Positions 2,207 through 63,501 of a stretch of 64,000 bases of DNA are shown piece after piece. The position numbers and the translations under genes are program-made. The stretch is from Escherichia phage vB_Eco_F27: the sequence record OP870146.1. One strand, written 5' to 3'. How positions within the stretch are numbered: the stretch's first letter is position 1; every line of letters starts with the position of its first letter. The notes below the pieces were generated by a model. The model was not told the origin of the DNA and ran no database searches. It saw only the letters and a program-made list of their open reading frames with translations.

Positions 2207-2218
2207 ATTTTTCTCTCA

Positions 2219-2419
2219 TCACAAATTACGTTTAAAAATTTCTGCTACTTCAAGAAGTTCTTCTTTAGTAGCTGTATCGGTTTGTATTTTATATCGAATT
2301 TCTTTAAAGCGTTCTTTAAAGGACTCTGCTGACTCAATATCAAAAAATCTTTGGATAAGCCGGAATTCCCGGAGCACTGCTTTATCAAAAAGTTCCAAGT
2401 CCACGTTATATGTTCTCAT
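2219..2419 (-). CDS. small hypothetical protein (rIIA.1 position)
   Basis: 66-aa ORF directly upstream of rIIA on same strand. Confidence 0.45.
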   Translation of the reverse strand: MRTYNVDLELFDKAVLREFRLIQRFFDIESAESFKERFKEIRYKIQTDTATKEELLEVAEIFKRNL

Positions 2420-2511: not shown

Positions 2512-3612
2512 TTACGCTGTGAAGATTTTATCCCACATCGCAACAACTGCATCTCGATTATACTTCTTCCATACTGCTTCAGCACGTTTAACTCGAGCTT
2601 CGTATGTGTCAGTAAATTCTAATACAGCTTTTGTGTAAAGCGCAACTACTTCTTTCTTAGGAGTAGAGGAATCAATTTCTACACGCACAGTATCTGGGTC
2701 GTATTCAAATGTCGCATGAGGATAATCCTTAAAAACTAACTGGATTACAGGGACACCTTTAGAGATGGCTTCAATAGAACTATTCTCTACCGTACCTGTG
2801 TCAGGACACGTATTAATAAGTGCTTTAGCTGTTTTAAGACGTTCCATGATTTCACTGTGTGGAGCATCAATAATAACAGGATACTTAGCCGGTGGTGCCC
2901 ATTTGCTTGGACAATAACCAATACCATTTTCGCCTAGTGCTTTAATCGCTTCAAGAGCAACATCAGTACGACGCATTTTAGTGTCATAACGTTGTGCACT
3001 AATAATCAGATCAGTCGCCGGAAGAACTTCAGGTTTCTCATTCAAACAAATAACCGGATAATCTTCGGCTTCAAACAACGGATTTGCTCGCCAATAATCA
3101 TAATCAATTTTGTCAGTCAGACCTGAAGTCATATAACAATATTTGCGTTCAAATTCACGGAAGGCTTTAGTAGGAGCATAACTCTTACCGCCATTCTTAT
3201 GAATTTGAATAGTCTGGTCCCAAATTTGAACAATGCCACGAGATACCGGTTCAAATGGTGTTGCCATAAAATTCTTATGAACTTTAGAGAGACCTGCGTC
3301 TTTAATTGCCTGAACGGTTAGTTTAGTCGGTTCCATAGTAACAACAAAATCGTATTCATGGATGCCGGCTAGTTCAACAATCTTACGAGCCATAGTATAA
3401 CTCATACCTAGACTGAATTTTGTCAGATGACCAACAGGATGATGATTAACCTTCCAATCACCAAACGTGTCATTATCAAAACCGATATAATCAATATCGG
3501 CACCAATAGAAACTAAATATTTCAACACATTTAAATGTACTGCTTCAAGACCACCTTGTACACGGTCAGGATTAAATGGGACTGCACGAGATGGGATAAA
3601 CATAACTTTCAT
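2512..3612 (-). CDS. putative glycosyltransferase, GT-B fold (candidate DNA hmC glycosyl/arabinosyl-transferase)
   Basis: 366 aa; N-terminal MKVMFIPSRAVPFNPDRVQGGLEAVHLN and C-terminal ENSSIEAISKGVPVI resemble GT1/GT-B donor-binding motifs; sits between rIIA and gene 39 where T4 has gene 60 and mobA. Confidence 0.55.
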   Translation of the reverse strand: MKVMFIPSRAVPFNPDRVQGGLEAVHLNVLKYLVSIGADIDYIGFDNDTFGDWKVNHHPVGHLTKFSLGMSYTMARKIVELAGIHEYDFVVTMEPTKLTVQAIKDAGLSKVHKNFMATPFEPVSRGIVQIWDQTIQIHKNGGKSYAPTKAFREFERKYCYMTSGLTDKIDYDYWRANPLFEAEDYPVICLNEKPEVLPATDLIISAQRYDTKMRRTDVALEAIKALGENGIGYCPSKWAPPAKYPVIIDAPHSEIMERLKTAKALINTCPDTGTVENSSIEAISKGVPVIQLVFKDYPHATFEYDPDTVRVEIDSSTPKKEVVALYTKAVLEFTDTYEARVKRAEAVWKKYNRDAVVAMWDKIFTA

Positions 3613-15987: not shown

Positions 15988-16032
15988 AATTAACTCCTTT
16001 GTTGTTTAATTACAGGTGTATTTATAACTTAA

Positions 16033-16554
16033 TTAGTAACCATTATCCTGACGTTCAAAGTTGTGTTGGTTTTTCAAGTAGTAAAGTTTGAAGATTTCTT
16101 CAGCAGAAAGACCCAGACCTTGGAACATGTTCAGAACGAAGTGCAGAATATCAATCATTTCGAATTTAATTTCGAGCTGGTCTTCAGGAGACAGTTCATC
16201 AATACGACGATTACGATATTCAGCATGTTGTGCTTTCCATGGCTTCCATACACTGCTGGCAGCTTTTTCACCGTTGGACATACCACCAAGTGAAGTCAGC
16301 AGTTCACGGAATTCATCATCAATATAATCTTTCTGATTACGCAGCCAATCAACAACATCGCCAGCAGTAGCCAATTCATCAGGATGTTTGTTATGTTCAG
16401 GCTTGTCATTTGCCAGACGAACCTGTAAAGATTTCTGCATATCAAGCATTACCTGCAGTGGGTCTTTATCTTCGTGAATCAGAGCATTAAAATAAGCTTC
16501 TTCTGCTTTATCAACACCAGAAATAAGTTGTGAACATTCGTTAAAGTGCGCCAT
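16033..16554 (-). CDS. 56: dCTP pyrophosphatase (dCTPase/dUTPase, MazG-like)
   Basis: MAHFNECSQLISGVDKA...DPLQVMLDMQ...IDDEFRELLTSLG...EIFKLYYLKN matches recalled T4 gp56. Confidence 0.9.
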   Translation of the reverse strand: MAHFNECSQLISGVDKAEEAYFNALIHEDKDPLQVMLDMQKSLQVRLANDKPEHNKHPDELATAGDVVDWLRNQKDYIDDEFRELLTSLGGMSNGEKAASSVWKPWKAQHAEYRNRRIDELSPEDQLEIKFEMIDILHFVLNMFQGLGLSAEEIFKLYYLKNQHNFERQDNGY

Positions 16555-16642
16555 TATTTTTCCTTTCAATTCAGTATAAGAGAGTTAATTCTAACATTAA
16601 TTTTATAAAGCATAATAAATAATAGGTAACTAAGGAGATATT

Positions 16643-16840
16643 ATGTTTAAACTTCCATTGTTAATCAACGCTATTAAAGGCAATAAAAAGAAAACTGCTA
16701 TCGCCGCAATAGTTGTAGGTGGCATTATTTCATGGAACTTTGGGATTGCACCATTGTTAGTTGCCCATGGTATTATAGTTCCTTCTGTTCCATTGGATAC
16801 TGTAGTTGATTTGGCCTTTGCTATTATAGGGCTTGTTTAA
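16643..16840 (+). CDS. small hydrophobic (membrane) protein, plus strand
   Basis: 65-aa ORF with strong SD (TAAGGAGATATTATG); predicted TM segments; convergent with primase gene. Confidence 0.45.
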   Translation: MFKLPLLINAIKGNKKKTAIAAIVVGGIISWNFGIAPLLVAHGIIVPSVPLDTVVDLAFAIIGLV

Positions 16841-17859
16841 ATCTTCGAATAACGAGATAATCTCATTTTAGCATGCAACCCACTTGAAATATTCTGTTTC
16901 ATATATTCTAAAATTTCTTGTGGTGTTGCATTTTCTTTTATTACCATATCATTCACGTCCTTTGATCTCCATGGAGCTCGATCCCAGAACATGACACGTT
17001 CGCCTGCATCAACTAATCGCTTCATGCGAGCTATAGTATCTGGATGCCTAGGTTCATTATCCATTACCCATACCCGACGTTCTTTAAATGGTACCACATC
17101 TAAATCTATCGAGCCGCCTGTAATAGCGATTGCATTGGGTATGAATAAACTATCAATAGGGCCTTCCATTACCCAGACGTCCCCTTCCTTAACACGTTCA
17201 ACACCATAAATTTTTGTTGCAGACTCAAACGCTTTAATAGTGATATATTTCTGAGGAGCATCTTTACGAAGTGCACGTCCTTGGAATGACTCAGCCTTCC
17301 CATCTTTATTAAAAATAGGAATCACTAAACGTGGTTCGGGGATCTCTTTCTTATACGTACCAGGTTGAATCTTGTTGACCAATTTAGGCCATTCTAACGT
17401 GAACCATAATCTGTTCCATGATTCTTTAGGAATACACCGAGACTTAACATATTTCACAATAGGATGCTCTTCAGGCAACTTGTCCAGACGAGAACAAGAC
17501 GGCAAAGAATTTATAGTCTTTTTCTCTGGCTCCGGCTTAGCTTCAGGAACCTTTTCAATCTTTGGTTCCATTCTAGCTTTTTCTTTACGAACTTCCATTA
17601 GATATTCGCGATAAAGCTCTTCATCATACTCTTTTAAGTATCCGGAAATTGTATTGTGGTATTGACAATTATAGCAATGTACATTACCAGGAGTACCGCC
17701 ATAATACCATCCGCGAGCTTTCATTGCATCTGTCTGAGAGTCGCCACAAACTGGACAACGAAACGTTAATTTAAATGTGCTTGAATTATTGATTTGTCTA
17801 AAACGAGGGAGGTGAGAAAACGCACGATAAGCAAATTCATTATCTATCCATTCAGCCAT
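16837..17859 (-). CDS. 61: DNA primase
   Basis: 340 aa; N-terminal zinc ribbon CPVCGDS...CYNC and Toprim region; size and synteny as T4 gp61. Confidence 0.9.
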   Translation of the reverse strand: MAEWIDNEFAYRAFSHLPRFRQINNSSTFKLTFRCPVCGDSQTDAMKARGWYYGGTPGNVHCYNCQYHNTISGYLKEYDEELYREYLMEVRKEKARMEPKIEKVPEAKPEPEKKTINSLPSCSRLDKLPEEHPIVKYVKSRCIPKESWNRLWFTLEWPKLVNKIQPGTYKKEIPEPRLVIPIFNKDGKAESFQGRALRKDAPQKYITIKAFESATKIYGVERVKEGDVWVMEGPIDSLFIPNAIAITGGSIDLDVVPFKERRVWVMDNEPRHPDTIARMKRLVDAGERVMFWDRAPWRSKDVNDMVIKENATPQEILEYMKQNISSGLHAKMRLSRYSKI

Positions 17860-18378
17860 AGTATTCTCCAGAGGCCTTAAATTAATAAGGCCATCATATC
17901 ACAACTTATTAATATTTACTTTAATTCGCTTTCTTTTCTTGGAAGGAATTTGTTCTGGACCTTTATTTACGACTGCACCTGTAGTTGTTCCTGATGCAAT
18001 AGCTTGAGGACTACCGCCTGAATCACCGGCAACCAGTACCGCCATAATACCATCCGCGAGCTTTCATTGCATCTGTCTGAGAGTCGCCACAAACTGGACA
18101 ACGAAACGTTAATTTAAATGTGCTTGAATTATTGATTTGTCTAAAACGAGGGAGGTGAGAAAACGCACGATAAGCAAATTCATTATCTATCCATTCAGCC
18201 ATAGTATTCTCCAGAGGCCTTAAATTAATAAGGCCATCATATCACAACTTATTAATATTTACTTTAATTCGCTTTCTTTTCTTGGAAGGAATTTGTTCTG
18301 GACCTTTATTTACGACTGCACCTGTAGTTGTTCCTGATGCAATAGCTTGAGGACTACCGCCTGAATCACCGGCAACCA
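17693..18378. repeat. perfect tandem direct duplication, 2 x 343 bp (17693-18035 = 18036-18378)
   Basis: Direct sequence comparison: unit spans the 5' end of gene 61, the intergenic region and the 3' end of the upstream gene. Confidence 0.9.
18023..18202 (-). pseudogene. duplicated 5' fragment of primase gene 61 (59-codon chimeric ORF)
   Basis: Second copy of primase start MAEWIDNEFAYRAF...CPVCGDS...WYYGG runs into duplication junction and stops after TGCR. Confidence 0.6.
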
Positions 18379-18709
18379 TATCCTCAAATAAAGGGAGTTC
18401 TTTAAATATTTCTTTCTGTTGTTCTTCCGTAATGTTATAGCGTGAAGCTACAGCACTCCAGGCAGACATCATTGAGGCCATTCCATTAAGACCTGGAACA
18501 GTGCTCATCATTCGCTTCATTGAACGAACTGAAGCATGAAAAGGTGTATAAGCCGCTTTCTCTTCAGGAGTAGAAGGACGTTTAAGAACACTTCCACGTT
18601 CATCGATGATTTTGGCTTCGTACGCTTTCCATTCTGTAAAAGGTTTTTGCATTAGTCGAATAAACTTATATGCATAAACTGAATCTATTGCAGTGTTAAT
18701 AATACCCAT
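18242..18709 (-). CDS. hypothetical protein
   Basis: Start taken at MGIINTAIDS (AGGAGG SD); C-terminal basic tail KKRKRIKV; 3' end lies in duplicated unit. Confidence 0.5.
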   Translation of the reverse strand: MGIINTAIDSVYAYKFIRLMQKPFTEWKAYEAKIIDERGSVLKRPSTPEEKAAYTPFHASVRSMKRMMSTVPGLNGMASMMSAWSAVASRYNITEEQQKEIFKELPLFEDMVAGDSGGSPQAIASGTTTGAVVNKGPEQIPSKKRKRIKVNINKL

Positions 18710-18728
18710 AGGTACCTCCTGAGTATAT

Positions 18729-18926
18729 TTAATCAATTACAAAGATTGCTTTGTCACCATTTATATCTGTGACTTCATATGTAGTGCCTTCATACTGTGG
18801 AATATTCCAAATTACACCGTCATTAGCTTTTACGCTAATATAGCATTGGTGTTTTGAAACAACTTCATAATCTTCAAAACTTGTAAAAACACTAATTTTA
18901 GAACCAGTGCAAATTGCAGTAGTCAT
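18729..18926 (-). CDS. hypothetical protein
   Basis: 65-aa ORF. Confidence 0.4.
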   Translation of the reverse strand: MTTAICTGSKISVFTSFEDYEVVSKHQCYISVKANDGVIWNIPQYEGTTYEVTDINGDKAIFVID

Positions 18927-18927
18927 T

Positions 18928-19587
18928 TTAACCTCGATTCATAAATGCATTAAATATTTGGTCATCAACAGAAATTTCTAATTTGACTTCAATTGCTTCA
19001 GCCTTTTCTTCAGGTGGTAATTCGTATCCACACACTACAATTTTTTCATCGATATCAAAATATACAGAAGCAATACGATTAATGTTACTTTCAGTTAAGT
19101 CTAAATCAACATCAACATCTTTTTGACCTACACTTAAAGGATAACTAATACGGGTTATTTTATTATCTTTAACAAAGAGTCCACCAACATACTCTGTACT
19201 GCGTTTGAAGTTTACACGTTTCCGAATTGAAAGATATGATACATCTTTACCGTGAGCTCGGCTCATAGGACATAATGAATAGCTAGAATAAGAGATGTCA
19301 AATCCTACACCTTCAATATGAGCCAACGTGTCATGATTAAACCAATTATAATCATATGCCAAATCCATTATATTGTAATATGTGAAAGGCACAGGATTAA
19401 CATCATATGTTGTACCTTTAAAATCTGCCCAGGCAACGATTTCGTTATCTTTAACAATTACAAAAATTACACCAATATGGTATCCGTTATTATTTTCGTT
19501 CGGCGTTATATTATAACATTGTGCATTAGGAAATTTACCATATTTAAATGGTGCGTTTTTGTGCATATAATAAATCATATTATTCAC
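18928..19587 (-). CDS. hypothetical protein
   Basis: 219-aa ORF. Confidence 0.5.
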   Translation of the reverse strand: MNNMIYYMHKNAPFKYGKFPNAQCYNITPNENNNGYHIGVIFVIVKDNEIVAWADFKGTTYDVNPVPFTYYNIMDLAYDYNWFNHDTLAHIEGVGFDISYSSYSLCPMSRAHGKDVSYLSIRKRVNFKRSTEYVGGLFVKDNKITRISYPLSVGQKDVDVDLDLTESNINRIASVYFDIDEKIVVCGYELPPEEKAEAIEVKLEISVDDQIFNAFMNRG

Positions 19588-19873
19588 CTGTGATTTCGGT
19601 TACGATATCTTTGTTATCGAAATTAGGGTCACAATACAAAACATAGTTGTACTGCATGATACCGCCGGACTTAAGTTGTTCAACAACTTTATTAACCATA
19701 TTAGGACGGTCTCGTTTAGTGATGTTCATGATATCAGAGAAGATTTGTTGTTCAACATCTTCTTGATTTGCAGTCATTGACCACTCACAGAGGTCTTTAT
19801 CATAACCTGCCGTAACTGGAGCCGGTGCACATGATACTGCAAGTAAGATTGCTGCCAATGATAACTTTTTCAT
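19580..19873 (-). CDS. sp: spackle periplasmic protein (lysozyme inhibitor / superinfection exclusion)
   Basis: Signal peptide plus AGYDKDLCEWSMTANQ...SGGIMQYNYVLYCD matches recalled T4 Sp. Confidence 0.85.
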   Translation of the reverse strand: MKKLSLAAILLAVSCAPAPVTAGYDKDLCEWSMTANQEDVEQQIFSDIMNITKRDRPNMVNKVVEQLKSGGIMQYNYVLYCDPNFDNKDIVTEITGE

Positions 19874-19936: not shown

Positions 19937-20185
19937 TTATTCTTTTTCGCGAATAATAATTACTTGTTGAGGCTGCTGAGCAGATTTCTTTTCGGCAACG
20001 ATAGACCAAATTAAAGTTCCAATCCAACCAATCATCGTCCAGTTAAAGAGTAAAGATACAAAGAAGATTGCTGTTGTGCTTTTTGTGCCACGAATAAGTG
20101 CGATTACCCAAGGCAACATGTAAATGATGATTGAACCGATACCTGCGATTAAAACTGCTACTGAACTAGCTACGAATAATTCCAT
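19937..20185 (-). CDS. small integral membrane protein
   Basis: 82 aa, two hydrophobic helices. Confidence 0.55.
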   Translation of the reverse strand: MELFVASSVAVLIAGIGSIIIYMLPWVIALIRGTKSTTAIFFVSLLFNWTMIGWIGTLIWSIVAEKKSAQQPQQVIIIREKE

Positions 20186-63139: not shown

Positions 63140-63501
63140 TATAGACTCTCAGTAAAGGTACGAGCGATAACGTCGCGCTGCTGTTCCGGAGTCAGAGAGT
63201 TAAAGCGAACTGCATAACCGGATACACGGATGGTCAGCTGCGGATATTTTTCCGGATGCTTAACTGCATCTTCCAGAGTTTCGCGACGCAGAACGTTAAC
63301 GTTCAGGTGTTGACCACCTTCAATTTTAACTTTAGGTTGATGTTCAATTTCAATTTCACGGGCATGCAAACCGTAGAAAATTTCCGGGTCTACAATAGAG
63401 TCTTCTTTAAAAGTCTTAGAGACGATAATCCGGGCTTGAGTACCGTCTTCAAAATAAATAGTGCCTTTATGTGTACCTTCAAGAATTTGATATGCTTTCA
63501 T
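63139..63501 (-). CDS. autonomous glycyl-radical cofactor (GrcA/YfiD-like)
   Basis: C-terminal [15 protein letters not shown] glycyl-radical signature; 120 aa; a T4 YfiD homolog has been described. Confidence 0.8.

Follow-up and report, generated by a model that had tools for sequence, protein, structure and literature searches.

A conserved plus-strand gene for a small predicted membrane protein, convergent with the primase gene and probably late, in a Mosigvirus and other T-even phages

In Escherichia phage vB_Eco_F27 (sequence record OP870146.1) a 65-aa open reading frame (ORF) runs on the plus strand toward the DNA primase gene, through a region transcribed almost entirely on the minus strand. 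The locus raises the question of whether this ORF is a protein-coding gene, when in infection it would be expressed, and whether the protein or the antisense transcript is what matters to the phage. A previous reading of the sequence alone had proposed a small membrane-protein gene, with possible transcriptional interference with genes 61 and 56. We analyzed the locus within a stretch of 64,000 nucleotides of the phage DNA (the window), and all positions below are those of the window unless stated otherwise.

The ORF (16643..16840, plus strand, ATG start; sequence MFKLPLLINAIKGNKKKTAIAAIVVGGIISWNFGIAPLLVAHGIIVPSVPLDTVVDLAFAIIGLV) is a homologue of RB69ORF029w and belongs to phrog_2024. The hydrophobic plus-strand ORF of the sequence-only reading, with its AAGGAG, is read directly in the sequence, and the GRAVY of the product is +1.31. 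The Shine-Dalgarno sequence AAGGAG is at 16632..16637 (plus strand); the motif stands as reported, but the 7-nt spacing does not, since 5 nt (ATATT) separate the last G from the ATG and 7 nt are obtained only by counting from the AAGG core, a trivial discrepancy. AAGGAG is invariant in the upstream-region alignment of three genera, (A/T)AGGAG or GGAGG is present in all other loci, and the ATG with a strong ribosome-binding site is kept in every T-even locus read. The end of the ORF, placed 4 nt inside the primase 3′ end, is exact: the stop codons of the plus-strand ORF and the minus-strand primase gene overlap in TTAA at 16837..16840.

The primase gene (gp61 homologue) occupies 16837..17859 and the dCTP pyrophosphatase gene (gp56 homologue) 16033..16554, both on the minus strand and both identified by the annotation of near-identical records. 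In the 73-nt spacer between gene 56 and the ORF two elements stand back to back: on the minus strand, a predicted MotA-type middle promoter of gene 56 (GCTT-N14-TAGAAT, 16588..16611), annotated at the equivalent position in SA79RD, and on the plus strand, a late-promoter-type octamer, AATAAATA (16614..16621), which is the T4 consensus TATAAATA with A at -13. The minus-strand character of the surrounding region was described correctly, as all ORFs of 110 aa or more in the 64-kb window, other than shadows of genes, are on that strand.

Over the 401 bases around the ORF, the identity to about 150 or more Mosigvirus genomes (E. coli and Shigella phages) is 98-99%, and on this basis the window is that of a Mosigvirus, i.e., an RB69-like T-even phage. 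About 150 Mosigvirus records label the ORF "hypothetical protein", flanked by DNA primase (gp61) and dCTP pyrophosphatase (gp56). The SA79RD entry for it carries a cross-reference to RB69ORF029w, the Mizar entry mentions one transmembrane domain, and WBF80518.1 (Escherichia phage vB_Eco_F27) is the exact protein. RB69ORF029w/phrog_2024 is the same gene, in the same position between genes 56 and 61 and in the same orientation; the window copy has L6, in contrast to S6 in most Mosigvirus. The phrog_2024 HMM, to which PHROG assigns no function, was matched full-length (residues 1-65 against profile 1-65, E = 1.6e-26), and was also matched by all 18 diverse relatives tested. RB69ORF029w is in the databases as a hypothetical protein, so the ORF was already known; it is a real, already annotated, conserved gene, ordinary and not new.

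Homology searches gave little beyond the family. Apart from phrog_2024, the window protein had one chance-level PHROG match and nothing else; the Pfam search (even at E <= 1) and the NCBIfam search gave no match; the PDB sequence search returned chance transmembrane-segment matches only, e.g., acetylcholine-receptor M4 helices; and Foldseek against viral models returned family members only. An Rfam scan of 16300-17100 gave no match. The literature on T4 and T4-like transcriptomes, ribosome profiling, small ORFs, omics and transposon sequencing yielded no transcript, peptide or mutant data for the ORF or its relatives.

The annotation of the relatives is uneven. The T4 reference NC_000866.4 annotates nothing in the 309 bp that separate dam from gene 61 and hold a 66-aa homologue, and the exact T4 protein in a large protein collection comes from unannotated assemblies only. 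JS98 (NC_010105) also carries its own copy unannotated, and one UPEC01 copy is misannotated as 'DNA packaging ATPase'.

The sequence-only reading had named conservation in relatives as a check, and its absence, along with that of plus-strand transcription, as refuting. On conservation the refutation fails: we found the gene, under purifying selection, in seven Tevenvirinae genera. A tblastn search with the ORF protein gave 692 phage records, and related subtypes were found in 118 and 174 records of two further searches; the subtype records are Dhakavirus, Jiaodavirus, Gelderlandvirus and Moonvirus, in which loci were read, together with enterobacterial T4-like phages of unchecked genus. The seven genera in which loci were read are these four and Mosigvirus, Tequatrovirus and Gaprivervirus, and in all of them the homologue keeps the plus strand and the place between genes 56 and 61, convergent with the primase gene.

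In Tequatrovirus, the T4 homologue (NC_000866 17738..17938, plus strand; locus L003 2739..2939; tblastn) has 66 aa and 54% identity. It shares with the window ORF the stop overlap with gene 61, the ribosome-binding site and an octamer, GATAAATA, 29 nt before the ATG, and differs in that dam lies between it and gene 56 and in having no feature in the reference record. Gaprivervirus homologues (UPEC01 and VR26) are 43-49% identical, often as two tandem paralogues, types A and B. Dhakavirus (JS98) and some Klebsiella phages have type B alone, and a third subtype (W-N-Y), with PKO111, Melville and CF1 as examples, is found in Jiaodavirus, Gelderlandvirus, Moonvirus and metagenomic T4-like contigs. 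The 4-nt stop/stop overlap with the primase gene is also present in T4, Melville, CF1 and the loci L027, L028 and L029; in CJ20 a 118-nt spacer separates the two genes.

The tandem arrangement of types A and B was detected in Gaprivervirus (L006 2001..2198 and 2207..2407; L014 2501..2698 and 2707..2907) and in ESCO47 (H54, H121), a Mosigvirus outlier. The paralogues are 8 nt apart in UPEC01 and VR26, and the second one is deleted or truncated in CJ20 and L015.

Slopekvirus KP15, Tulanevirus, Bragavirus and an Acinetobacter T4-like phage lack the gene; in these, the next same-strand gene directly follows the primase gene. The family is therefore accessory and not core, and by this distribution it is a lineage-specific accessory gene of Tevenvirinae. 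An exhaustive profile search of 1.84 billion cluster representatives gave 17 clusters only. Distant relatives are located at E. coli prophage ends, beside an endonuclease VII gene (two phage contigs), and beside RelA/SpoT-type genes in enterobacteria. In the E. coli prophages the family member comes last after the tail-fibre genes, in a block that also has lysozyme and GIY-YIG genes. Chromosomal or prophage members lie directly upstream of a RelA/SpoT-family (small alarmone synthetase-like) gene at L020 129..1383, L036 6001..6811 and L037 2125..2860.

Sequence comparison within genera shows the annotated frame to be under selection as a coding sequence. The pN/pS ratio is 0.13 in Mosigvirus, 0.14-0.19 in Tequatrovirus and 0.37 in Gaprivervirus, and the third codon position accounts for 12/18, 9/13, 8/13 and 8/16 of the differences in four pairs. 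Summed over these pairs, the annotated frame has 38 synonymous and 22 non-synonymous changes and 0 stop codons, versus 3 to 37 stops in the other five frames, none of which is open across all four pairs; only the annotated frame is open in every genus. For the same pairs the primase pN/pS is about 0.02-0.04, so the ORF protein is faster-evolving, yet it is clearly constrained. Between genera dS exceeds 1.8 and synonymous sites are saturated, and M1, W31, N32, P37, G43 and P47 are invariant in 32 diverse sequences. Taken as a whole, the ORF is almost certainly a real protein-coding gene. The antisense frame that shares third codon positions with it is open in Mosigvirus; it was rejected as a gene because it has stops in Tequatrovirus and Gaprivervirus.

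In T4, early and middle transcripts are all of one polarity, and the other polarity is possible for late transcripts only (PMC2988020). Genes 56 and 61 define the early strand, and a plus-strand gene should therefore be late. T4 late promoters consist of the octamer TATAAATA; the 50 sites listed include 32 perfect ones and 9 with A at -13 (the commonest variant), and the rest are mostly single deviations (PMC2988020). Late transcription of this type depends on gp55, gp33 and gp45 and requires no -35 element. The window octamer is located 29 nt before the ORF ATG, with a predicted transcript start at about 16627 (in T4, NC_000866 about 17722). Of 15 loci examined, 13 have the octamer NATAAATA 23-41 nt upstream of the ATG: Mosigvirus (2), T4, HMD-9, Gaprivervirus (3), JS98, PKO111, L016, L027, L028 and L029. 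In the two others, Melville and CF1, ATTAAATA takes its place, and the remaining upstream sequence is poorly conserved. We infer from the match to the T4 consensus that the octamer has promoter activity. The late-only strand, the late element and the strong ribosome-binding site together suggest late, independent transcription, and on strand and motif match the ORF is likely to be expressed late. The terminator directly behind the ORF in contig L016 fits such a self-contained late unit.

On the plus strand of the 64-kb window ATAAATA occurs only twice, once as the ORF octamer and once at 63454. The latter belongs to a second plus-strand AATAAATA at 63453, which falls within a minus-strand gene, is followed by no ORF and was dismissed as a chance occurrence. 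WATAAATA is depleted in the window, with 8 sites on both strands versus 18.3 ± 4.4 expected from shuffles, as would fit selection that keeps stray late promoters out of the early region.

A known parallel for such an arrangement is soc, a T4 late gene in the early region, which is likewise a short stand-alone late unit inside an early cluster. Its late promoter, TATAAATA, is at 16019-16026 (minus strand) and is annotated in relatives. Unlike the ORF, which runs against its early neighbours, soc has the same direction as they do.

The AlphaFold2 model, built with the family alignment, has a mean pLDDT of 83, with helices at residues 3-11, 15-41 and 51-62 and a loop at 42-50; the pLDDT of helix 15-41 is about 85-90. 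The hydrophobic transmembrane helix core predicted from the model, hydropathy and invariant columns comprises codons 18-41 (16694..16765, plus strand) and includes W31, N32 and P37; the invariant G43 and P47 are just past it. All five K/R residues (K3, K12, K15-17) precede the long helix, and the sole acidic residues, D52 and D56, follow it. The assignment as a membrane protein made in the sequence-only reading is supported by the predicted helix 15-41, the hydropathy and the charge layout, and the product is very probably a membrane protein. Since basic residues come before the helix and acidic ones after it, the positive-inside rule gives an N-in/C-out orientation; with the membrane-free AlphaFold model, this points to what is probably a bitopic inner-membrane protein with the N-terminus in the cytoplasm and the C-terminus in the periplasm.

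The family signature is (L/F)-W-N-(F/Y/L)-x3-P-x5-G-x3-P-x-h-x-h-(D/E), and its spacing places the invariant residues in the helix's outer half and at the point where it leaves the membrane. The buried Asn, the Pro and the Gly suggest helix-helix contacts of the protein with itself or with a partner.

The reading that we favor, with moderate confidence, is that the gene encodes a late-made inner-membrane micro-protein with one transmembrane helix, which acts on a late envelope or lysis-timing step. The protein would start with a short N-terminal helix and a cytoplasmic Lys-rich stretch (K12, K15-17), continue with the long transmembrane helix carrying the Trp-Asn pair and the Pro, and end, after the invariant Gly...Pro turn, in a short acidic, hydrophobic periplasmic tail. 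With its own gp55-type late element AATAAATA and strong ribosome-binding site, the gene would form an independent late unit within the early gene cluster. The most conserved residues are inside or just after the helix, and the protein would thus act through association of helices within the membrane, its partner being either another copy of itself or a different envelope protein. In the late envelope or lysis-timing step the protein would be an accessory and not the main holin. Lysis timing or lysis inhibition would be the most natural candidate role, which we offer as a tentative guess of rather low probability; the gene is not near the t, rI, rIII, e or spanin genes.

The next candidate, which we consider less probable, is an accessory role in protection, with the membrane protein excluding superinfecting phages or countering a host defence that acts at the membrane. 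The lineage restriction of the family, which is dispensable in other T4-like genera, fits this role. So does the placement of distant relatives at accessory-gene sites, i.e., prophage ends after tail-fibre genes, and beside RelA/SpoT-type genes; the tandem paralogues in Gaprivervirus and ESCO47 are as expected of fast-evolving accessory genes. The T4 exclusion proteins Imm and Sp, in contrast, are early, and late expression would be an odd timing for anti-defence or exclusion. The PHROG, Pfam, NCBIfam, PDB and Foldseek searches gave no homology to known exclusion or defence proteins.

It is unlikely that the ORF is itself a holin or pinholin that forms membrane holes and triggers lysis. Its size, its single transmembrane helix and its probable late expression would fit. 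UniProt gives 'Holin' for one Tequatrovirus homologue, one Klebsiella phage record has 'putative holin', and remote members weakly match the holin PHROGs 3427 and 11161 (E = 5e-4 to 0.07). The 'holin' names, however, are apparently automatic or unsupported, and the window protein is without any Pfam match, holin families included, at E <= 1. In all T-even genomes read the flanking genes are replication genes (primase, dCTPase), with no endolysin or spanin gene. A PHROG scan of the distant relatives' neighbours gave no lysis-cassette signal; a lysozyme gene is 1.5-3.4 kb from the family member in some distant prophage contexts only.

T-even phages, moreover, already lyse through the 218-aa holin T with the antiholins RI and RIII, and t mutants do not lyse. 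The ORF protein resembles T and RI, single-helix inner-membrane proteins with N-in/C-out topology, in its predicted inner-membrane location, probable topology and probable late expression. The periplasmic part is a folded domain in both T (218 aa) and RI (97 aa) but only a tail of about 22 residues in the ORF protein; no sequence similarity to either was detected, and the ORF lies away from their genes. Small one- or two-helix holins and pinholins (e.g., S21, 68 aa) are alike in size, hydrophobicity and small or polar helix residues. They differ from the ORF protein in that it is encoded outside a lysis cassette, has its charged segment at the N-terminus with no charged C-terminal tail, and has no significant match to their families.

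A role mainly as RNA, in which an unterminated late transcript would shut the primase gene and the early region by collision or RNA pairing and the peptide would be secondary, is similarly improbable. A search for plus-strand terminators in 16300-19800 (3 kb downstream of the ORF) found none, so the transcript would run antisense into the primase gene. The stop/stop overlap leaves no room for a terminator and is conserved in many genera, and T4 transcribes both strands at some sites, at different times (PMC2988020). In the diverged T4-like contig L016, however, a plus-strand intrinsic terminator, made up of a perfect hairpin and a T-run behind it, extends over the ORF stop, and antisense read-through is thus probably no conserved feature. 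The ribosome-binding site and ATG are conserved everywhere, and the amino-acid motif is invariant despite saturated nucleotide divergence. The terminator in L016, the 118-nt spacer in CJ20 and the purifying selection on the protein frame argue that antisense action is not what keeps the gene.

The interference with genes 61 and 56 suggested by the sequence-only reading has to be revised accordingly. For gene 56 it was not supported: the predicted plus-strand start at about 16627 lies downstream of the predicted, opposite-firing middle promoter (16588-16611), and for this reason a transcript from that start could not overlap gene 56 mRNA initiated at that promoter. For gene 61, selection on the protein frame and the L016 terminator speak against interference as the main point of the locus. 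A late RNA antisense to the primase mRNA may be made in this phage as a by-product, and primase expression may be reduced late.

A composite of these proposals would make the locus an overlooked late T-even gene whose micro-protein, or a Gly43-cleaved 22-residue peptide, tunes holin triggering or lysis inhibition, with an additional antisense RNA against primase; we regard it as doubtful. The cleavage by itself is very unlikely. It would make the helix a signal peptide with a Lys-rich n-region, Pro at -6, Ala at -3 and Gly43 at -1, releasing a periplasmic peptide of ~22 residues, and P-x-x-x-(A/T/S)-x-G followed by a non-proline residue is indeed found in most family members. We rate it so low because the hydrophobic stretch of about 23 residues is long for a signal peptide and carries the invariant W31 and N32, unexpected in a mere export signal; the -3 position is also F or W in two members. 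The weakest proposal, a chance open frame in the non-coding spacer between genes 61 and 56, in line with a short, AT-rich ORF unannotated in the T4 reference and JS98, is effectively refuted by the conservation, selection and motif data, all contrary to it.

As it stands, the late-made membrane micro-protein that we favor carries little weight, being one more conserved hypothetical small T-even membrane protein, present in hundreds of annotations. The analysis adds late-gene evidence across Tevenvirinae with a fixed primase junction, the omission from T4, and a motif and predicted topology that are testable in T4. Omics or knock-down screens in T4 that rely on the NC_000866.4 annotation will miss the gene because it is lacking there, and standard proteomics will also pass over the protein, which offers hardly any usable tryptic peptides. 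The gene is one of very few late-direction genes within the early region and, with its fixed stop-to-stop primase junction, is an easy target for T4 genetics.

At the other end of the primase gene we detected an exact 343-bp tandem duplication (17692-18034 and 18035-18377), which covers the primase 5′ end, the intergenic spacer and the 3′ end of a 61.1-like gene. It yields two truncated ORFs, one for a second primase N-terminus (18023..18202, 59 aa) and one for a 61.1 C-terminus (17899..18045). In the phage collection the duplication junction was contiguous in no record and, among the matches listed, appeared as two pieces about 343 bp apart; the duplication is thus genome-specific or an assembly artefact. 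Further along, just downstream of the spackle homologue (19580..19873), an 82-aa ORF on the minus strand (19937..20185) with two hydrophobic segments would encode another small membrane protein of this cluster.
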